The notes under the pieces are model-generated. The model did not search any database, was not told the origin of the DNA, and saw nothing but the letters and a program-made list of their open reading frames with translations. A stretch of DNA of 63,008 bases, the filler included, from Basidiobolus ranarum (lineage: Eukaryota): NCBI GenBank assembly GCA_040143965.1. It is 50 parts of 50 records of this genome, joined end to end, with 100 filler letters (N's around TTAATTAATTAA, not from the genome) between each part and the next. Parts side by side here need not be neighbours in the genome. Positions count along the whole stretch, not along the records: positions 55,572 to 56,728 come from JASJQH010013081.1; 49 more parts are not named here. The stretch is one strand, 5' to 3'. How positions within the stretch are numbered: the stretch's first letter is position 1; each line of letters starts with the position of its first letter. The translations under genes and the position numbers were made by a program. Positions 1 through 56,728 of the stretch are shown here, piece by piece.

Positions 1-1119
1 GAAACTTTTGCTCCTGTAGCAAAGTTTAATTCAATTAGATTGATTTTAGCAATTTCAGCTAAATATCAGTTTATTATACATCAAATGGATGTTAAAACAG
101 CTTTTTTGAATGGTGAGCTTGCTGAGAAGATCTATATGGACCAGCCAGATGGATTTGTGGACCCAGAAAACCCTAAAAAAGTTTGCAGACTCCAGAAAAC
201 ACTCTATGGCTTAAACCAATCTGCAAGAGCTTGGAATAGCAAGATAGATACTTTTTTAGAAACACTCAAATTCCAAAAGAGTAATGCTGACTATGGTATC
301 TACTTCAGGCCAGATAAGACAAACCCAGTTTTATTAGCCTTATATGTAGATGATCTTATTATAGCAACCAATGACTTGAAGACTTTGGAGAAAACCAAAT
401 CCAGCTTATCTGCCAAATTCAAAATGACTGATCTTGGTGAACTGATGTACTATCTTGGAATCCAAATTAAGATAGATAGAACTACCAAAACAATAACTTT
501 AAACCAGTCTAAGTATATCCTAGATATACTAAAGAAGTTTAAAATGGAAGAATGTAATCCAGTATCTACCCCAATGGAGACAAATCTTAACTTGACCAAA
601 AATGGCTCAAATCAGATGTTTTTGGATTCAAATGAAAGCCAGAAATTTCCTTATCAATCTATGGTTGGTAGTTTGATGTATATCATGATTGCAACATGGC
701 AAGATATTGCATATTCTGTGGGAGTTATGTGTCAATATCTTCAAAATTATGGATCTGATCAAATCATAGCAGTTAAGCAGATTTCCAGATATTTGAAAGG
801 TAATATAGATCTATGCTTAAAATACACATATTCTGGATCAAATTTTGATCTGATGGGATATTTGGATGCAAATTGGGGAAGAGATATTGAAGACAGGAGA
901 TCTACAACAGGATACTTGTTTCTTTGCTGTAATGGAGCTATTTCTTGGAATTCAAAGAAACAACCTACTAAGGCACTTTCAACCACAGAAGCTGAATACA
1001 TGGCTGCCTGTGAAGTAACAAAAGAAGCAATATGGTTAAGAAAACTCTTAACAGACTTGAGTTATTCCCAAAATTCACCACCACAATATTTCAAGATAAG
1101 CAAAGCTGTATCAAATTAG
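1..1119 (+). mobile_element. Ty1/Copia pol fragment: reverse transcriptase + RNase H (5' truncated, frameshifted at 3' end)
   Basis: Frame open from base 1 (ETFAPVAK); [51 protein letters not shown] motifs. Confidence 0.97.
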
Positions 1120-2598: not shown

Positions 2599-3704
2599 TT
2601 AACCCCTGGCCCGAGCTAGGGACCAATAGGGGACCCCTATGCGGAGGATACTGGAAGAATTCAGATCAAAATCTAACTTTGGAATACCAAGAATGGGACT
2701 TGAAAGTGTCGCGCTTTTCTTAAGCGAAGCATTGGTTTTGAGCATATTCTTGAGATTTGACACACTATCAGAGAGGTCTTTAGTGGAAGGAGGTATAAGA
2801 TTAACTGGAAGTGTTTTAGGTATTTCTTGTCCAGCTAATTTAGCATAAATCAAGTGCATTGCGACTGCGAACTCATCCGAGTTAAGTTTTCCTTGATTAT
2901 GAATATCGGCTAAACCCCATATCTGACCTAGATCGGATTTGTTTAAACCGGACTCAGTGAATACTTGTCTAGCTTTCTCCCCCGAGAGAAAGCCAGAATG
3001 GGTGCTGTCAAGAGATTTGAAAATCTGATCAAATTGTGCTTTTTCCTCTGGAGTAACTGCCCATTGACCTCTTGCAAAATCATTGCTTTTTTGGTTATTG
3101 TACCCACCATATTGTGGTGAAGACATATTCATCCCAGGCATTGTTCCGCCTAAAGGAGTGGTTACTCCGGGGATATTAGGTCCTGGAGAGTAATACCCAG
3201 AATAAGAAGAGTTTGGAGTCCCTACATTTGGAAGTCCCATATTGGAAGCACCCGCAGATTGCATAGCAGACGTGATCTCCTGGCGCAAGTTTCCGGGGAG
3301 CTGATTAGGAACAATTTGACCAGTTAATTTCAAGTTAATCAAGTACATGGCCAAAGCAAATTCTGGAAAAGTTAAAGACCCAGATGCGTTGATATCTGCC
3401 AAAGACCTAATTATATTAAAGAATAACAAATAAGTTATAAAATTTTCTAAAAATAAGGAGATTGTTTTATAATACCAAATCTGAGCAAGAACCTCGGAAT
3501 CTAGTTTGGAACGTAAGAATATATCTCTTGCTGCTTCACCTAAATTTTATCCTTTGTGGTTAACACGTAAGTTTTAAAATGGAAACTTTCTTGAATTGTC
3601 AACCTGTTAATTGTTGGTTGGGACTAGAAACATTTTGTTGAAATAATTGTTCAAACTTTGCTTGTTCACTAGGGTTTAAGAAAGACAGTTTTTCTATAGC
3701 AAGG
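2599..3704 (-). CDS. PAN1: Pan1-like EH-domain endocytic scaffold, partial; exons 3704-3604, 3539-3476, 3406-~2645
   Basis: Spliced reading KLSFLNPSEQAKFEQLF..LTGEAARDIFLRSKLDSEVLAQIWSLAD..FPEFALAMYL (EH1) and WAVTPEEKAQFDQIF..GQIWGLAD..DEFAVAMHL (EH2); GT-AG introns 3540-3603 and 3407-3475 restore the frame; the last ~110 bp of the contig look like low-quality sequence. Confidence 0.88.
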
Positions 3705-5071: not shown

Positions 5072-6238
5072 CTGAAAGTAGCTGAGTGCAAATTTGAGAT
5101 GAGGTCCTTCAGTTTCGGGATCGAATGTGATAGTGCACGAGACTTGGTTGTCAGACCAATATTTTTGCATAAATGCTGCTAATGATAGCTGTTCCCACAT
5201 TGTTACATCTACCAAAGATCTTATTTCGTCGCCGTGGTCGATAGGAATTTCTACTACCATGGTATTCGGCTCAACTGTGGATGGGAGAAGCGAAATGAGA
5301 AGAGCGATCAATAGCTTCATAGAACGTAGTAGATGATACTTACCGACATCAGGCTCCACTTTGTAACCGGCTTCTCTGAAAGGTTCCACCATCTCTGATA
5401 TTTTGGATAGACGTACACGGCGAATGCAAAACCTACTTTCTGGATAATGCAGCCCCGGAGTGGCTATATACGTAGTAATTATGATTAAGTATGATCTTTC
5501 CCAAGCTTGAATGTGTGCGAGTAACGTACCTCCAGCTAACAAGGAAACCGTTCCACTTGGTTTAACTGTAGTGATCTTGATAGATCTAGGAATACCGAGC
5601 CATTCACACAACCTTAAATGTGCTACTTGTTTAGTATACGTTCAATAAAAGTACAGTATTATTATATGGCGTCTTACTTCTTGTCCGTTTCTAAAATATG
5701 CTTATAGCCCTCTTCGCACCATGTTCTGAGCTCTTCGATCCCTGGACGATATATGTATATCAACACCAAATACCAAAGGGCAATTCAATACATAAACTCA
5801 CCTCTTTTGCTTATAAACTGGGCGATACCACTTAAACCAGTTCCAATTCTACGATTTCTCGTCATGACTTTATTAGTTTCCGGCCAGTGTGTAGTTCCCA
5901 ACGTCACTGTCTTTGCATAAAGGAATGCCAGCTCCAATGTTTCCAGGAAATCGTAAATTGAGGAATGATTACTAGGAAATACTTCTACAAGACAACACAG
6001 CTCAAAGGATTCCAAAGTTTGTTCCAGGCACGGATTTCCACCTTGTGCTCGATAGTCTTGTTTATTCTAACAATAGAAGAATTGAATAAGTAAAGGGGTG
6101 GTGTCAGCGCGCATGGTGATTTATTACCATTGGGTCACCCATTCTTCCATAGTTCTGGGCATTATCTAACCATGAGAACCCGGGCTCTCCATTAGAGATC
6201 ACGCGCTTGCAAATGTTCTGGTAGTCCATACCAATCTT
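5072..6238 (-). CDS. nrdJ: Class II (adenosylcobalamin-dependent, monomeric RTPR-type) ribonucleotide reductase, internal fragment with 5 introns
   Basis: Exons 6238-6128, 6066-5802, 5741-5678, 5612-5530, 5463-5344, 5274-5072 splice in frame: NGEPG, GGNPCLEQTLESFELCCLVE, FLYAKTVTL, RNRRIGTGLSG, TTVKPSGTVSLLAGATPGLH, WSDNQVSCT. Confidence 0.93.
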
Positions 6239-24496: not shown

Positions 24497-25221
24497 TGTT
24501 GAAGTTTATTGTCTTTATCATATTTGTTATCTCTATCTTTATATACCTGACTATTTCATATATCACATATAAGTTAGTTAACATTATTTAGTCAAATATC
24601 ACTTAGCTGCAAATTGGAACATATATTATATATATGTGAATGATGTGTGAATTAGCAATTCCATATTGGAAATTTCAAACTCGTCCAAATTGGCCCAAAG
24701 ATAGTTAATTTTACTCCCACAGATGTTCTGAACACAATCCCAGTGTTAGTTTTCTGTATTTCCATCAAAATGTATAAATGTTCTATTTCTGGACAATAAA
24801 CAATTATTTCACAAAGCTATTTGCAACTCCACTTTTCTAAAGTTTCTCCAAACAGCCCATATTTTCCCAATAGGCTATGAGCTTCATGTTCTAACCTTTA
24901 CAGCATGAAAGAAACCACCACTACCACTTTTATCAACTCAAGTGTTGAAAAGCTTGATGGAGAAAATGACAATTTCTTGAAGTTCAAGCTGCAAATCATG
25001 CTGGAAGACAGGGACCTTTGGGATGTAATCTCTGGAGATGAAAAGGAACCTTCTGGCCCTTCTTTATTGGAAGCTTACAAGAAAAGAGACAAGAAGGCCT
25101 TTAATGTTGTTTGTCAAAGGTTGAAGGATTCACAACTTGTGAATATTCAATATGCAAAGACTTCCCATCAAGCTTGGACTATATTGGAAGAGTGTTATGA
25201 AACACAGAGTCTTGCAAATAG
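24497..25221 (+). mobile_element. Copia-B 5' end: LTR 24497-24872 (376 bp), decayed PBS, gag from 24905
   Basis: TGTTGAAG..CCCAATA, GGCTATGAGC, EKLDGENDNFLKFKLQIMLEDRDLW. Confidence 0.92.
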
Positions 25222-29110: not shown

Positions 29111-29833
29111 AATACTGGCATAGATTCAGTCAGTCTTCTTTAAACCTGTAATAAAGTTTTTCATATCCAATCACAAAATCTTTGCACAGTTGATGTATCT
29201 GCCTGAGATCTGCCAATGTGAATAGATGCTGTCAGAATATATTAACAATATCCACAAATAACTCCCAATGTTGCCAATACTTATCATGCAGAAATCTTTT
29301 CAAAATTGCACTTGAATATATAAAAATCCAATACTTCCAGTCTTTACATTTGAATAAACATCTAGAAGAGTGGATATTGATGCAAGTCCTGGTAAAATAT
29401 GATGCTATCTTGATGCTTTCAAGCATTTTCCCAATCAATTCAAACTTTGATCCTATCTTGATTTGATCATTCATATTAAATTTTCCTCTATATAGCTGAG
29501 TAAGTAGTATTAGAATGTTGTTGAATAGTAAATGCATAGTGCCTAATGGGAAGCTTTGGCTCCAGCAGATCCCCTTTAACAATAGAATATCAGGCTTATG
29601 GCTAATACCAAGTTTGATGTTAGACTGACAATTTGGTGAATTGATATCAGTGATCTTATTGAAATCTGACTGGGCTCTTGATGATATAATCATGAAATTT
29701 AGTGTTGTATATAGATGGTAGTAATGCATATGCCTGTTATAGTAAACTCCATTGATTTGACAAAATATACAGCAAGATAGTGTATTGTGCTGACAAAAAC
29801 CTCCAAGTTTACTGATGTCAAGAGTGTCACCAA
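29111..29833 (-). mobile_element. CMC-1 transposase core
   Basis: GDTL.ISKLGGF, FPLGTMHLLF, FKCKDWKYW, FVIGYEKLYY. Confidence 0.9.
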
Positions 29834-30273
29834 TTTCATGATTCTGATCTAGGCATACTGATCTATACAAATAGAACTCTTCTATTATTAGCTTATAACA
29901 TCATATCTGCTGTGCCATCCCTTCTTAGCAATCTTGTGTTAGTTCATCCAGATTACCTTATACAGAAGTCATATTCTTTGGAACATCCCATGAAACCTAA
30001 CAAATCATTTCATCCCACAAATAGTGTATTCCAACCAAGACCTTCCATGGAACATCCCCTGATCATCCTTATATCATACTTCATCATCCCCCTTTGTATT
30101 GGTCCCTGCAGTCCCCAACACCCCAACTCTTGAACTTGCCACAGTATATTCCCTATTCAGTATATTATGCTTCATCTTGCAATATCTATATAAGCCCCAT
30201 ATATTCCTTGATCAGACTTCAGTCTCATCAATGCCAGTTATCAATAGTAATTCTTGCAAAATTATCTTCCCTG
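29834..30273 (+). repeat. Gypsy-C LTR, 3' truncated; inserted in CMC-1 transposase
   Basis: TCATGATTCTGATC start matches the 22295 end. Confidence 0.88.
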
Positions 30274-33459: not shown

Positions 33460-33741
33460 TGTTGAAAGTCAGATGACTTGTGGTACAAGCAGTAATTCCC
33501 AAAGAGGAAAATATGGAGTATGGTGATTGCATCTGAACACAAAGTCTAAGGCCAATCAGTTGCTTGTAAAGCTGAAATGTCAAAGTACCATAAATTGACA
33601 GACTAGGTTAAAGTTACCTAGCAATATAGGCATAGCATACAAGGACTGGTAGCTCAGTGGTTAGAGCACCTTGCTAGAGTGAGGGAGGTCCCAGGTTCAA
33701 ATCCTGGCCAGATCAATATTTCTCCCTAAATAATTTCAACA
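33460..33741. mobile_element. 282-bp solo LTR-like element containing a tRNA-like sequence
   Basis: Perfect 8-bp inverted ends TGTTGAAA..TTTCAACA; flanks TAGTT/TACTT (4/5 target-site duplication). Confidence 0.72.
33643..33715 (+). tRNA. tRNA-like sequence or pseudo-tRNA (AGA at the anticodon position; isotype unreliable)
   Basis: 73-nt cloverleaf: acceptor GGACTGG/CCAGATC, D arm GCTC-AGTGGTTA-GAGC, T arm CCAGG-TTCAAAT-CCTGG; weak anticodon stem and no long variable arm. Confidence 0.7.
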
Positions 33742-42983: not shown

Positions 42984-44143
42984 AACCTGTGAGCACATTG
43001 AAAAGAGCCCTTTGTTGGCAGGTTAATATACTCTGGAGTCTCCTTAACCCATTGCATTACATCCATCACTGATTTTGCTGATACATTGTTAATCAGATTA
43101 GCATACGGTAATACTGACGATTTCACACGGAGCATCATTTCACCGCAGGTGCACTCCATTGGGAACTCCCAGAATGTATAGCAAGGGCCTATAATCTCTA
43201 AGCATTGTGAAAGATGCAGCAGGGAATGTATTGAATACCGGCATAGATTCAGTCTATCTTCTTTAAACCTGTAATAAAGTTTTTCATATCCAATTACAAA
43301 ATCTTTGCACAGTTGCTGTATCTGCCTGAGATCTGCCAATGTGAGTTGATGCCATAAGAATATATTAACAATATCCACAAACAACTCCCAATGTTGCCAA
43401 TACTTATCAGGCAGAAATCTTTTCAAAATTCCACTTGAATATATACAAATCCAATACTTCCAGTCTTTGCATTTGAATAAACACCTAGATGAGTGGATAT
43501 TGATTGGAGTCCTGGTAAAATATGATGGTATCTTGATGTTTTCAAGCATTTTCCCAATCAATTCAAACTTTGATCCTATGTCAAATGTCTCATTCATATT
43601 GAATTCTCAACTATATAGCTGAGTAAGTAGTATTGGAATGTTGTTGAATAGTAAGTGCATGGTGCCTAATAGTAAGCTCTGGCTCCAGCTGATCCCCTTG
43701 AGCAATATAATCTTAGGATTATGGCTAATACCAAGTTTGATGTTAGAATGACTGTTTGGTAAATTGATATCAGTGATCATGTTGAAATCTGACCGGGCCC
43801 TTGACGGTAAAATCATGGAGTTTAGTGTTGCATTTGGATAGTAGTAATGTGTATGCTTGTTAGAGTAAACTCCATTGATTTGACAAAATCTACAGCAAGC
43901 TAGTGCATTGTGCCCGCAAAAACCTCCAAGTTTACTGATGGCAGGAGTGTCACCAATACATACTGTGATATCAGCTTTAATAAAATATTCACCCATCTGA
44001 ACCCCATTAGATAACCGTTCAAATTCCGCAATCAAAGGCTCCAAGAAGCTATCTATAAGCATTGGTGATTTAGGTCCAGATATGATGGATAGTATCAAAA
44101 TATTATGACTCTTATACCATTCAGAAGGAGGAAGATTTAATTT
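42984..44143 (-). mobile_element. CMC-1 Tnp2-family (CACTA/EnSpm) transposase, best-preserved copy (one frameshift near 43607)
   Basis: SIISGPKSP..DSFLEPLIAEF, IGDTPA, GHNALACCRFC, TMHLLF, YEKLYY..RL..C..SIHSLLHL..GP..WEFPME: the fungal Tnp2 motif series. Confidence 0.92.
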
Positions 44144-49281: not shown

Positions 49282-50440
49282 ACAAGGATCCATGTGGTAT
49301 TCTTGATTAGGGAGTGAATTTCATCATCAGTGGCTTTTCTCCATTCTGTCACTTCATCAGATTTCAGAGCTTGTATCAGATTTTCTGGTTCAGAAAATGC
49401 CATATGTGCAGATATATTCCACCCTTTTTCTGAATTGAAAATGTTAATTTCATGCTCTGATTAGAGACATCCAAAGTCCTTGATAGAATGGTCAGATGTT
49501 TCACTTACAGGATGTTTCTGATTTCCACTCAGTAGGATTTCTGAGACTTGATTGCCTGAATTTTGTGATTGATTGAATTCTTGTTGTGATTGATCATATA
49601 CTTTCAATAATTGATTGCATCCAATATCAGCCAAATTGAGAGTAGGATATTTCTTAGGTATGTGATTGGGCAGAAAATGACTGCCTTTTTTCTGAGCCCA
49701 ATTTCCTGATCCCTGATTGGCTGGCAAAATATCCTTTTTCTGATTACCATATTTTTCATTGGCAGGGATAATATGCTGTTTTCCAGAAGCTGGTTGCAAA
49801 TTATCAGTATCTTCTGAGTAATTATCAGGTTTTCTGGTATGAATTGGTGCATTTCCAGTGCTGCCTTATGATTATTACTCAGATAGCTGCTTGATTCCAG
49901 AATATCACATAATAGTGTGTTCTCCTTGATTTCTGTACTCATAGTGAAGCTAGAGGTAGGATTATTACTTGTTGGTTTTCTGCTAGGAATATTCACCACA
50001 GAGATTGGTAATAATTTGAGCATTGTCATATATTCATTGGTGGCTGATGTTTCAGACCTTGTCCCAGATGTGATATTTTCTAAATTTGGATACTGTTGAT
50101 AGATAGTTTCAGATTCCAAATTTGGCCTAATTCCAGTATCTATTTCCAATGTAGCATTTTCCAAGTTGGTTTCAGTACTTGTTAGCTCAAGATTGGTTTC
50201 AGAGCTCATTGACTCAGAATTTGAGTTGTTGAGAAATTGATTTTCAGCCAAATTCAAATTCCCTTCATTAGAAGATTTGAGATTTTCTTCAATGAATATA
50301 GTATCTCTGGAGTTGATGATTTGATTTGTGGCCGCAATTAGGAGATGGTATACTTTTTTCTGATATCCTAATAGGATACATTTAATTGCCTTTTTGTCCA
50401 ATTTCTGATGCTGAGGTTTAGGAATATGAGCATATACTAT
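49282..50440 (-). mobile_element. Copia pol: integrase C-terminus and long low-complexity linker up to the pre-RT region
   Basis: KLDKKAIKCILLGY, IINSRD.IF.E; EPENLIQALKSDE..EWRKA..DEI.SL. Confidence 0.88.
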
Positions 50441-51799: not shown

Positions 51800-52957
51800 C
51801 ATATTATCACACAAGTAAATTAGTCTCACTATAAAGGTACTTACTCTGTGTCCATGGATTAGGCTTTGTTGCTGTTATTGTGCTCAAACAATGCAAAAAC
51901 ACATGAGCACATTGAAAAGAGCCCTTTGTTTCAAGGTTGTATATTCTGGAGTCTCCTTAACCCATTGCATTACATCCATCACTGATTTTGCTGGTACATT
52001 GTTAATCAGATTAGCATATGGTAATACTGACAATTTCAAAGAGCGTCATTTTGCCGCAGGTGCACTCCATTGGGAACTCCCATGATGTATAGCAACGGCC
52101 TATAATCTCTAAGCTTTGTGAAAGATGCAGCAGGGAATGTATTGAAGACTGGCATAGATTCAGTCTATCTTCCGTAAACCCATAATAAAGTTTTTTACAT
52201 CCAATCACAAAATCTATGCACAGTTGCTGTATCTGCCAGAGATCTGCCAATGTGAGTTGATGCCATAAGAATATATTAACAATATTGATAAACATTCCCA
52301 ATGTTGCTAATACTTATGAGGCATAATTCTTTTCAAGATTCTACTTGAATATATACAAATCCAATACTTCCCGTCTTTGCATTTGAATAAGCACCTAGAT
52401 GAGTGGATACTGCAGAAGTCCTGGTAAAATATGAAGGTATCTTGATGTTTTCAAGCATATTCCCAATCAATTCAAACTTTGATCCTATCTCAAATGGCTC
52501 ATTCATATTGAATTCTCCAATACATAGTTGAGTAAGTAGTATTGGAATGTGGCTGAATAGTAAGTGCATAGTGCCTAATGAGAAGCTCTGGCTCCAGCTG
52601 ATACCCTTTAGCAATAGCAAGTTTGATGTCAGACTCACTAGTTGGTAAATAGATATCAGTGATCATGTTGAAATCTGACCAGGCTCTTGATGGTAAAATC
52701 ATAGAGCTTAGTGTTGTATTTGGACAGTAGCAATGCATATCCCTGATAGAGTAAACTCCATTGATTGGACAAAATCTACAGTAAGATGGTGCATTGTGCC
52801 CACAAAAACATCCAAGTTTACTAATGGCAGGAGTGTCACCAATACATACAATGAAATTAGCTTTCATAAAATATTCACCTATCTGAACCCCATTAGATAA
52901 CCATTCAAATTCAACAATCAAAGGCTCCAAGAAGCTATCTATAAGCACTGGTGATTT
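51800..52957 (-). mobile_element. CMC-1 transposase core, degenerate
   Basis: Colinear with 42984-44070. Confidence 0.9.
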
Positions 52958-53842: not shown

Positions 53843-53935
53843 GGTGGTACAAGTAGCTAACTAACAGTAAGTCCCTCATTGAAGTTTCTCTTCCACTTCA
53901 TACAAAATCACCACAGATCATATTTACTACTTAAC

Positions 53936-54214
53936 ATGAAATCTTTCTTTGCCATCGCTTTAGCCGCTCTTGCCACCCAGATATCAGCTGCACCTGTTGG
54001 ATCACCCAGTCAATGCGAAGGCTGGGAAGTCGCTGCTATAGAGCACGCCACTGGCAATGAGGCAACATTTGCATCAAATGACCAAGTGGTCCTCAAATGG
54101 ACAGTATCTGGCTCCGAAGTGACCAACATCAGAGAGGTAGACCTTTACAGTGCTAAAACCAATGAATTCCTGCACACACAATATCGTAACTACCCAGGAG
54201 TGAGTGCCACCAGT
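53936..54214 (+). CDS. Unknown secreted protein, N-terminal 93 aa (3' truncated)
   Basis: Signal peptide MKSFFAIALAALATQISA-AP; beta-rich pattern V.LKW..VDLY. Confidence 0.78.
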
Positions 54215-54612: not shown

Positions 54613-55471
54613 TGTTGAAGTTTATTGTCCTTATCATATTTGTTGTCTCTATCTTTATACACCTAACTATGTCATTTATCACATATAAGTTGGTTAATGT
54701 TACTTAGTCAAATATTACTTAACTAAGAATTGGAACATTTATTATATATATATGTGAATAATGTGAGAAAAAGCAGTCTCATATTGGAAATTTCAAACTC
54801 ATCCAAATTGCCGCAAAAATAACTCATTTTAATCCCACTGATGTTCTGAACACAACCCCAGTGTTAGTTTTCTGTTTTTCTACAAAAATGTATAAATGTT
54901 TGATTTCTGGACAAAAAATAATTATCTCACAAAGCTATTCACAACTCCACTTTTCTAAAGTTCCACCAAACAGCACATATTTTCCCAATAGGTTATGAGC
55001 CCAATGTTCTAACCTTTACAGCATGACAAAAACCACTACTACCACTTTTATTAACTCAGGTGTTGAATAGCTTGATGGAGAAAATTACAATTTCAGGAAG
55101 TTCAAGATGCAAATCAGGCTGGAAGACAGGGAGCTTTGGGATGTTGTCTCTGGAGATGAAAAGGAACATTCTGGCCCATCTTCATTGGAAGTTTACAAGA
55201 AAAGAGACAAGAAGGCCTTTAACATCAATTGTCAAAGTTTAAAGAACTCACAAGTTGTCAATATTCAATCTGCAAAGACTTCCCATCAAGGCTGGACTAT
55301 ATTGAAAAAGTTTTATGAAGCAAAGAGTCTTGCCAATAGACTCTTTCTCAGATAAAAATTCTTCAATATAAAGATGGAAAAGTCTGGAAGTATGGTTACT
55401 AATATTGCAAATGTGAGATCTTTGGCAAAACAACTGGAAAATATTGGTGCAACTTTACAGGAAGAAGATGT
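54613..55471 (+). mobile_element. Copia-B 5' end: LTR 54613-54990, PBS 54991-55003, gag from 55023
   Basis: TGTTGAAG..CCCAATA-GGTTATGAGCCC. Confidence 0.92.
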
Positions 55472-55572
55472 NNNNNNNNNNNNNNNNNNNNNNNNNNNNN
55501 NNNNNNNNNNNNNNNTTAATTAATTAANNNNNNNNNNNNNNNNNNNNNNNNNNNNNNNNNNNNNNNNNNNNC

Positions 55573-55812
55573 TCCATGCCCCAACCCCAGGCTGAGCACT
55601 CTCTGCAGAAAAGAGGAGGCTGGGGTGGCTGGGATGACTGCTGCTGTGATGATTGTTGTGATGATTGCTGTGATGATTGTTGTGATGACTGTTGTGATGA
55701 CTGCTGCTGGGATGATTGCTGTGATGACTGCTGTGATGATTGCTGTGATGACTGTTGTGATGATTGCTGTGATGATTGTTGTGATGACTGCTGTGATGAC
55801 TGCTGCTGCTAG
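55573..55812 (+). CDS. Secreted (Asp-Asp-Cys-Cys)n peptide precursor, copy 1 (signal peptide cut off by contig edge)
   Basis: ..HSLQKR-GGWGGW-(DDCC)x14-stop; repeat variation is confined to third codon positions; AATAAA at 55924-55929. Confidence 0.85.
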   Translation, partial: SMPQPQAEHSLQKRGGWGGWDDCCCDDCCDDCCDDCCDDCCDDCCWDDCCDDCCDDCCDDCCDDCCDDCCDDCCDDCCC

Positions 55813-56470
55813 GATCTGCATCAAATCACACCATTGGGCAAAGTTCCTTCAGCAGGCCAGCTGGAAGCAATCTTTCCAAACTCAAAGGATTTCCTTTTCT
55901 CCCCATTTTGCCAACTATTATTGAATAAATCTTTTTTGCTTGAGTCAAAATGATTGCACTTGTTTTTATATTGACCTCTTGGAAGGTTTCACTGGTTTCA
56001 AATGTAAGTCTCAAACCATTGTACCTGGTCAAATCTGAATTCTCCAAAAGTCAGATGGACTTTCAATTGATTTCTTAATTGGTTTCACTTCTGCTTAGGG
56101 TTAGTGAGAAAAATAGTAATATTCACTTGAGAAGGGGCACAAAACTGCCTATTGAAAGATGGAAAATTTTTGCATCCCTCTCTATGCTATTGCTTAATTT
56201 CTCAAATTATCTGCTGGATGGGATTGGAACCCAGCACCATCAGGGTGATCAATTTCCTCCCTGCCATTAGGCTATGATCAAGTTACATTAGATTGTGATG
56301 TGGATTCTAATTAATCACTCCACTGCTGAGCCTGGCCTCAGATAGATCTACAGATTAGGGATTGGGGGAATCCACTCAATAGCTACTTTGATCAGCTTGG
56401 CAGAGAATTTGGATGAAGTGATCTGATTATTCTTCCCATCATTTTGATCAATCTCAAGGTAGTCACAGTG

Positions 56471-56477
56471 TATAAAA
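56471..56477 (+). promoter_or_regulatory. Candidate TATA box of the DDCC peptide gene
   Basis: TATAAAA 79 bp upstream of ATG 56550, followed by a CT-rich leader. Confidence 0.55.
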
Positions 56478-56549
56478 GTGAAGCAAATGGATCCACATTA
56501 AATATCTTCTTCTTCTATCTCTCCCCAGCATCTAATTTACCTTTCCAAT

Positions 56550-56728
56550 ATGAAACTCTCCATCTCCAAAGTATCCTTGGTAACACTGTTCAGCCTTGTA
56601 TTCATAAGCAAGGTACTCTCCATGCCCCAACCCCAGGCTGAGCACTCTCTGCAGAAAAGAGGAGGCTGGGGTGGCTGGGATGACTGCTGCTGTGATGATT
56701 GTTGTGATGATTGCTGTGATGATTGTTG
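56550..56728 (+). CDS. Secreted (Asp-Asp-Cys-Cys)n peptide precursor, copy 2 (3' truncated)
   Basis: MKLSISKVSLVTLFSLVFISKVLS signal, pro-region, KR; 56618-56728 identical to 55572-55682. Confidence 0.85.

Follow-up and report, generated by a model that had tools for sequence, protein, structure and literature searches.

An unplaced contig of Basidiobolus ranarum, at positions 55572..56728 of the 63,008-base stretch of DNA analyzed here (the window), encodes a predicted precursor whose mature part is built from repeats of Asp-Asp-Cys-Cys (the D/C peptide). Our tentative interpretation is that the contig carries a genuine gene of a Basidiobolus-like fungus, free of introns and not annotated so far, which specifies a pre-pro-peptide that could serve as a metal chelator outside the cytosol, on a tandem array resembling CUP1. 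Of the functions considered here, metal binding would be the likeliest for the D/C peptide.

The window consists of 50 unrelated unplaced contigs, ordered by size from 1168 to 1155 bp and joined by linkers of the form N44-TTAATTAATTAA-N44 (98 N44 runs around 49 copies of TTAATTAATTAA). Because the sequence on either side comes from unrelated contigs, the flanks of 55572-56728 are uninformative; any feature crossing a linker in the window is an artefact. The contig is 1157 bp long and consists of a 1046-bp unit followed by a 111-bp repeat of its own start. Its last 111 bases (56618..56728, + strand) are identical to 55572-55682, which is the longest exact match between its prefix and its suffix, and among the 50 contigs of the window it alone has such an overlap. 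With the same 111 bases at both ends, the contig is one 1046-bp unit closing on itself and not two independently seen copies. The original prediction had described two partial copies of a gene; these do join into a single open reading frame (ORF), but they represent one unit plus a terminal overlap of 111 bp, identical by construction and not independent. Read across the closure, the ORF has 102 codons and no intron; its ATG lies at 56550 and its TAG at 55810-55812.

The case for the D/C frame comes from the array itself (55633..55809, + strand), which comprises 14 units of GAT GAY TGY TGY as defined by a unit table, Tandem Repeats Finder (period 12, 13.4 copies) and a pattern scan. A degenerate DNA pattern for (DDCC)2, with at most 2 mismatches, has 15 matches in the window, all of them in the D/C contig, while none of 100 shuffled sequences contained any match. 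The 14 units vary at unit positions 6, 9 and 12 only, always between C and T and always at codon position 3, as had been read from the DNA beforehand. Units 1, 6 and 14 are each followed by one extra in-frame codon (TGT, TGG and TGC, respectively), with the third-position pattern common to all three, and the three length changes in the array are all whole codons. In the +1 and antisense frames, positions 6, 9 and 12 correspond to codon position 2 or 1, and the residue is altered there. Calculated by hand, the probability that all three variable columns fall at third positions of the D/C frame is 4/12 x 3/11 x 2/10 = 0.018. The variants at unit positions 6 and 9 occur in all four possible combinations, so that more than three events must lie behind the third-position pattern. 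Because the variation is synonymous in the D/C frame alone, the array appears to have been under selection in this frame, as originally proposed; together with the ATG, leader, L-x-K-R and stop that lie in frame around the array, the evidence for the D/C frame is good but not conclusive.

Since three frames are open across the array, an open frame alone proves nothing: the D/C frame gives 102 aa, the +1 frame 96 aa (composed of Met, Thr, Ala, Val and Ile), and the antisense frame 111 aa (Ala, Val, Ile and Thr). The latter ORF (window 55516-55821, - strand, extended over the closure) is probably a by-product of the repeat. The three open frames fit a view in which there is no functional gene, the contig being a satellite of about 1 kb or a recent tandem duplication with a 12-nt microsatellite open by chance, or in which the product is made from another frame or strand. 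Consistent with this view, databases that include the B. ranarum and B. meristosporus proteomes hold no homologue and no annotation, the recognition value in the Atlas (1363) is under the level of most real families, and the promoter and poly(A) hexamers described below are weak. Low-complexity orphans, however, score badly in such searches anyway, and a chance repeat does not readily account for indels of whole codons, for variation that is synonymous in the D/C frame alone, or for an in-frame ATG, a leader-like segment and L-x-K-R before the array with a stop right after it. We consider the absence of a functional gene unlikely.

The segments ahead of the array would suit a secreted product. 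Of the 102 residues of the precursor, the first 24 form a hydrophobic leader, the next 13 (Met25 to Lys-Arg) the pro-region and the last 65 the mature part; the counts given in the original prediction are all correct, among them those for the mature part (30 Cys, 28 Asp, 4 Gly, 3 Trp). The leader, identified from the ORF list and its hydropathy, is encoded with the start codon (A at -3) by 24 codons at 56550..56621 (+ strand). It has Lys at residues 2 and 7, a hydrophobic core, and Val-Leu-Ser ahead of the predicted cut, which we placed by eye using the -3/-1 rule. In a 9-residue Kyte-Doolittle window, hydropathy peaks at 2.73 over residues 11-19 and is below 0 from residue 20. This profile is that of a cleavable leader, and the n/h/c layout fits a signal peptide for the endoplasmic reticulum (ER); from inspection and the hydropathy profile, we infer that the D/C peptide would be secreted. 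The pro-region (13 codons, 56622..56660, + strand; same sequence at 55576-55614) ends in Leu-Gln-Lys-Arg, a candidate Kex2 site. It is followed by the mature-peptide coding part (55615..55812, + strand; 65 codons and the TAG stop), which begins with the head Gly-Gly-Trp-Gly-Gly-Trp and continues into the D/C array, the stop lying directly after the last array unit and the ATG, leader and L-x-K-R in frame before the first. The mature peptide (7.1 kDa) is 46% Cys and 43% Asp, carries a charge of -28.5 at pH 7, contains 15 adjacent Cys pairs, and has neither Lys nor Arg. Its 66 codons, stop included, are GAT (21), GAC (7), TGT (17), TGC (13), TGG (3), GGC (2), GGA (1), GGT (1) and TAG (1).

Both flanking hexamers reported from the first inspection are present. 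TATAAAA (56471..56477, + strand) lies 79 nt 5' of the ATG and contains the one TATAAA that the contig has on its + strand, while AATAAA (55924..55929, + strand), 112 nt 3' of the stop, is the contig's only one on either strand. They constitute weak evidence, because both hexamers are common in these contigs (TATAAA 0.46 and AATAAA 0.89 per kb per strand). The spacer between the stop and the next start (55813..56549, 737 bp, GC 0.383) contains no further ORF of at least 60 aa, the longest being 42 aa.

The layout of the precursor is familiar among fungi. The major cleavage preference of Kex2 is described as P4 Leu, P2 Lys and P1 Arg (bioRxiv 10.1101/2020.05.27.120113), and the motif that had been assigned to a fungal Kex2 site, Leu(P4)-Gln-Lys(P2)-Arg(P1), corresponds to the preference stated there; we accordingly treat LQKR as a candidate site for Kex2 cleavage. 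The same source gives a rule for K2PP proteins: behind a signal peptide comes a pro-domain of more than 4 aa, LxxR, KR or RR falls within the first half, and more than half of the secreted chain is mature protein (10.1101/2020.05.27.120113). The D/C precursor conforms to this rule, since its leader-like segment is followed by 13 residues of pro-region with L-Q-K-R, and 65 of the 78 residues predicted to be secreted belong to the mature peptide. With K2PP proteins such as SnTox3, ToxA and the SIX effectors it shares a leader of signal-peptide type, a pro-domain that is short and disordered, Lys-Arg preceded by Leu at P4, and a mature part that is rich in Cys and exceeds half of the secreted chain. 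K2PP is nevertheless a processing class and not a homologous family: the SnTox3, ToxA and SIX members are globular and have a few disulfides, whereas the D/C peptide is a pure period-4 D/C repeat with no detectable fold match.

Repeat proteins processed by Kex2 are also well represented in the genus. In a survey of 1461 assemblies, Basidiobolus meristosporus is reported to have the largest number of KEPs, 43 (PMC7329392), and Kex2-type processing of secreted repeat proteins can therefore be said to be at home in Basidiobolus, which agrees with the Kex2 site proposed originally. The D/C precursor resembles KEPs (for example, ustiloxin-type precursors and Rep1) in its putative ER signal, internal tandem repeats and candidate Kex2 site, and in the KEP-rich genus. 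By definition, however, the repeats of a KEP are separated by Kex2 recognition sites (as worded in PMC7329392), and KEPs release many short peptides, while the D/C precursor has a single site before one unbroken 65-mer. Membership among the KEPs was rejected on this ground, there being one KR in 102 residues and none inside the array. Membership among the hydrophobins was rejected on the Cys pattern. The architecture is of a known kind, that of the small, Cys-rich pre-pro proteins secreted by fungi; no counterpart of the mature peptide is known.

The combination of a signal peptide and a Kex2 step raises the idea of a peptide that is made by the ribosome and modified after translation (RiPP), in which the D/C core would be modified after cleavage (with thioethers, thiazolines or similar) by enzymes encoded elsewhere, in the manner of ustiloxin. 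Cys-rich cores are typical RiPP substrates. Ustiloxin-type RiPPs are described as entering by this same route, and Basidiobolus as rich both in KEPs (PMC7329392) and in biosynthetic clusters (10.1101/2025.03.31.646025). The precursor nonetheless has one Kex2 site, with repeats that are not separated by KR as the definition of KEPs would have it, the 1046-bp unit holds no second gene, and an array of the precursor alone would be an unusual cluster layout. A RiPP precursor seems very improbable.

A self-closing contig also bears on how the gene is arranged in the genome. A 737-bp unique spacer is included in the closure, so the 12-nt repeat inside a gene present only once cannot be its cause; reads must connect the 3' flank with the promoter. 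As far as the assembled sequence can be trusted on this point, 2 or more head-to-tail units, or a circular molecule, are required. The gene had been described as tandemly amplified, and that a head-to-tail duplication or a circle is needed agrees with this description; its basis, on the other hand, is one self-closing contig, from which tandem amplification is plausible. Differences between unit copies would be merged by the assembler. The best-known precedent for a tandem array of a small, Cys-rich, metal-binding gene is CUP1 of Saccharomyces cerevisiae (described in PMC4232551 and others), which the D/C contig resembles in its unit of 1-2 kb with a gene for a Cys-rich product and in a putative head-to-tail arrangement; with respect to the latter feature, the exact 111-bp overlap fits an array of at least 2 units or a circle. 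A blastn search with the 1046-bp unit against the other 49 contigs found nothing above 20 nt (all E >= 0.49).

Searches for relatives of the D/C peptide returned no characterized family, whether in Pfam, NCBIfam, the PDB, the Atlas, or the word-indexed and HMMER searches, in line with the original statement that the family was not recognized. Neither of the two protein pieces matched any Pfam family at E <= 10 or any NCBIfam family at E <= 0.01. In a word-indexed search of 5.8 billion proteins of near lengths, the 59-aa N-terminal piece had no candidate, and the 78-aa piece had 672 candidates, of which one reached E <= 10 without being significant (P0001, E 0.27, a 108-aa protein with CC-x-x repeats). 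This database includes the B. ranarum and B. meristosporus proteomes, and the gene of the D/C peptide was not found there. HMMER against 1.84 billion representatives of any length gave no match at E <= 0.001, the ESM Atlas search with the D/C peptide gave no usable match, and the PDB had none by sequence at E <= 10. An AlphaFold2 single-sequence model shows two helices broken at the internal Trp (mean pLDDT, the model's own confidence measure, 62.4); we give it no weight, and Foldseek found no match for it in the PDB at E <= 10. In the literature, we did not find the string DDCCDDCC, and searches for a DDCC repeat with a signal peptide and for a Basidiobolus metallothionein yielded nothing relevant.

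At the DNA level, a scan of one genome per species across 185,579 bacterial and archaeal species for sequences encoding (DDCC)3 identified two loci. One, in Thermosporothrix hazakensis (L001:1285-1734), is a 149-aa ORF that has five D/C units behind a hydrophobic N-terminus, and also a Pro-rich tail and LPPTG. The other is a short ORF ending at L002:1557 in a metagenome-assembled genome of an uncultured bacterium, with a hydrophobic leader and a Cys/Asp tail. Both predicted ORFs look exported, and this appearance may be counted in favor of an extracytosolic chelator. They resemble the D/C precursor in having short period-4 D/C runs behind a hydrophobic N-terminus, but with 3-5 units only and with no similarity beyond the repeat; since the likeness is confined to the repeat, it indicates convergence at most, not homology. 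In T. hazakensis, the D/C ORF (region L001 711-2488) has as its neighbor on one side a precursor of a mersacidin/lichenicidin-type lanthipeptide (TIGR03898, E 1.6e-21) and on the other a sortase-like gene, which does not reach the NCBIfam cut-offs.

What might such a peptide do? Its composition suggests metal binding, and we consider it chemically closest to phytochelatin and also close to the metallothioneins. Like metallothioneins, the D/C peptide is small and extremely Cys-rich, with its Cys residues in neighboring pairs or triplets and few aromatic residues (65 aa, 30 Cys, 3 Trp), and its Cys content is above that of metallothioneins, which would support a chelator. It differs from them by its leader-like N-terminus and pro-region, which are not of the cytosolic type, and by its 43% Asp. 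With phytochelatins and EC20, (Glu-Cys)n-Gly, it shares carboxylate and thiol side chains in a ratio of about 1:1. Phytochelatins, though, are made enzymatically by phytochelatin synthase and have gamma-Glu links, while the D/C peptide would be ribosomal, with alpha-peptide bonds, Asp instead of Glu, and paired DDCC in place of EC. There are precedents outside the cytosol: EC20, a translated analogue of phytochelatin, is reported to act on the exterior of bacterial cells as a chelator of Cd, Hg, Zn, Pb, Cu and Ni (PMC4611968), and Mmt1 is described as a metallothionein-like protein in fungal cell walls (PMC9036806).

A chelator outside the cytosol could work as follows. The leader would take the D/C peptide into the ER, and a Kex2-type protease of the late Golgi would cut off the pro-region. 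The resulting 7-kDa polyanion, with 30 thiols and 28 carboxylates, would pass to the wall or the medium, or be kept in a secretory or vacuolar compartment, where it may chelate metal ions of the soft and borderline classes, such as Cu, Zn and Cd, with high capacity. Gene dosage could be raised by tandem repetition, as in the CUP1 array of yeast. In its most specific form, the proposal is a ribosomal, secreted "phytochelatin", a Kex2-released 65-mer that captures or detoxifies metals outside the cytosol and is encoded on a dosage-adjustable 1-kb array independent of CUP1; stated this narrowly, it is possible but doubtful.

Several observations weigh against an extracytosolic metal chelator encoded by a Basidiobolus gene. 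The ER is oxidizing and favors disulfides, whereas classical metallothioneins reside in the cytosol and depend on reduced thiols, and Asp-rich stretches are not a metallothionein feature. No metallothionein model in Pfam matches even at E <= 10, the absence of a homologue in any of the protein searches means that there is no support from conservation, and the AlphaFold2 model, which matched nothing in the PDB, is uninformative on metal binding. The antisense and +1 ORFs (111 and 96 aa) are open as well, hexamers of the TATA and poly(A) kind are frequent in this AT-rich DNA, and tandem units of about 1 kb can be plain satellites. Assignment of the contig to Basidiobolus is by association, from its presence in the same contig set. 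The dinucleotide signature of the spacer is within the range of size-matched pieces from the other contigs, but toward its far end, at the outer part of the control range (12 of 147 pieces are equally or more distant), and neither links the D/C contig to the other contigs nor sets it apart from them. The fungal origin that had been claimed for the DNA does find support on another contig, where a fragment of a class II ribonucleotide reductase is nearly identical (153/159) to a Basidiobolus ranarum protein; origin from a rust fungus or from an animal (cnidarian or mollusc) was rejected on the basis of this match.

The disulfides favored in the ER suggest a structural role as a different outcome of the same route. 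Secreted Cys pairs could form inter-chain disulfides and yield a cross-linked anionic material of the wall, the spore coat or an adhesive (for example, the sticky tip of capilliconidia), with the Gly/Trp head as a polysaccharide anchor. The leader and the Kex2 site point to the compartment where disulfides form, the peptide offers 15 adjacent Cys pairs, and the high dosage of a tandem array would suit a bulk material. The T. hazakensis DDCC protein, with its Pro-rich spacer and LPPTG beside a sortase-like gene, suggests a wall-attached context, although the sortase-like match is under the NCBIfam cut-offs. Among Asp/Cys-rich proteins, our literature searches returned SOWgp of Coccidioides only, a glycoprotein of the wall whose repeats are described as rich in Pro, Asp and Cys (PMC9409882); it is not equivalent to the D/C peptide. 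On the other side, the 65 residues include no glycosylphosphatidylinositol signal, Ser/Thr glycosylation tract or known wall-linkage motif, 28 negative charges in 65 residues resist close packing unless bridged by cations, and the idea of an adhesive comes from the general biology of Basidiobolus. We judge a structural material somewhat unlikely.

The Asp residues admit another use. Runs of Asp could bind Ca2+ and control crystals of calcium oxalate or carbonate, or the D/C peptide could act as an anionic, Zn-dependent antimicrobial or metal-withholding agent against gut bacteria. Asp-rich biomineralization proteins and anionic poly-Asp peptides do exist, and the 28 Asp, the charge of -28.5 and the secretory route would suit either function, as would the life of Basidiobolus in herptile guts: it is described as a zoopagomycete of amphibian and reptile guts and an occasional human opportunist (PMC9391592). 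These functions leave unexplained why Cys should make up every second pair and why selection should act on Cys, and no relative among acidic matrix proteins was found in our searches. There is, in our estimate, only a small chance that either of them applies.

If the gene is expressed, the D/C peptide would be the first natural secreted peptide composed of Asp-Cys repeats only, and a natural counterpart of the engineered EC20 metal-capture peptides. Metal-thiolate chemistry would extend from the cytosol, the site of metallothioneins and phytochelatins, to the fungal secretory pathway and exterior, and a second, independent tandemly arrayed Cys-rich gene would stand beside CUP1. Should the secreted "phytochelatin" be borne out, it would represent a new class of extracellular fungal metal-handling peptide without sequence relatives. 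The contig also illustrates how such genes escape notice: this one lies on a self-closing contig of 1.1 kb and is absent from protein databases that contain Basidiobolus proteomes. Because the mature peptide is without Lys or Arg, trypsin-based proteomics would probably miss it.

The remaining contigs of the window contain other recognizable features. The reductase fragment (window 5072-5641, - strand) belongs to a class II ribonucleoside-triphosphate reductase, an adenosylcobalamin-dependent enzyme, and its ORF reads through an intron; the 153 identities to the B. ranarum protein are among 159 aligned residues, with a 22-residue gap at the intron, and B. meristosporus is next with 69%. Mobile elements are represented by pieces of copia-type long terminal repeat retrotransposons (RVT_2, retroviral SH3-like and copia gag domains) among 1-1116 (+), 49607-50440 (-), 55107-55355 (+) and 24881-25219 (+), and a second gag-like ORF was recognized by eye on another contig. 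There is also a fragment of Transposase_21 (tnp2-type) at 43610-44143 (-), and the ORFs at 52502-52957 (-) and 29235-29900 (-) are visibly similar to it, suggesting a multi-copy DNA transposon. An ORF at 2602-3546 (-) has an EH domain and EF-hands, as in adaptors of endocytosis; an Atlas search with it pointed to no one taxon. A tRNA gene at 33643-33715 (+) is the only Rfam match in the window at the gathering score. Finally, the ORF at 53861-54214 (+) includes a Met followed by a stretch resembling a typical fungal signal peptide and belongs to no Pfam family; it may encode another small secreted protein.

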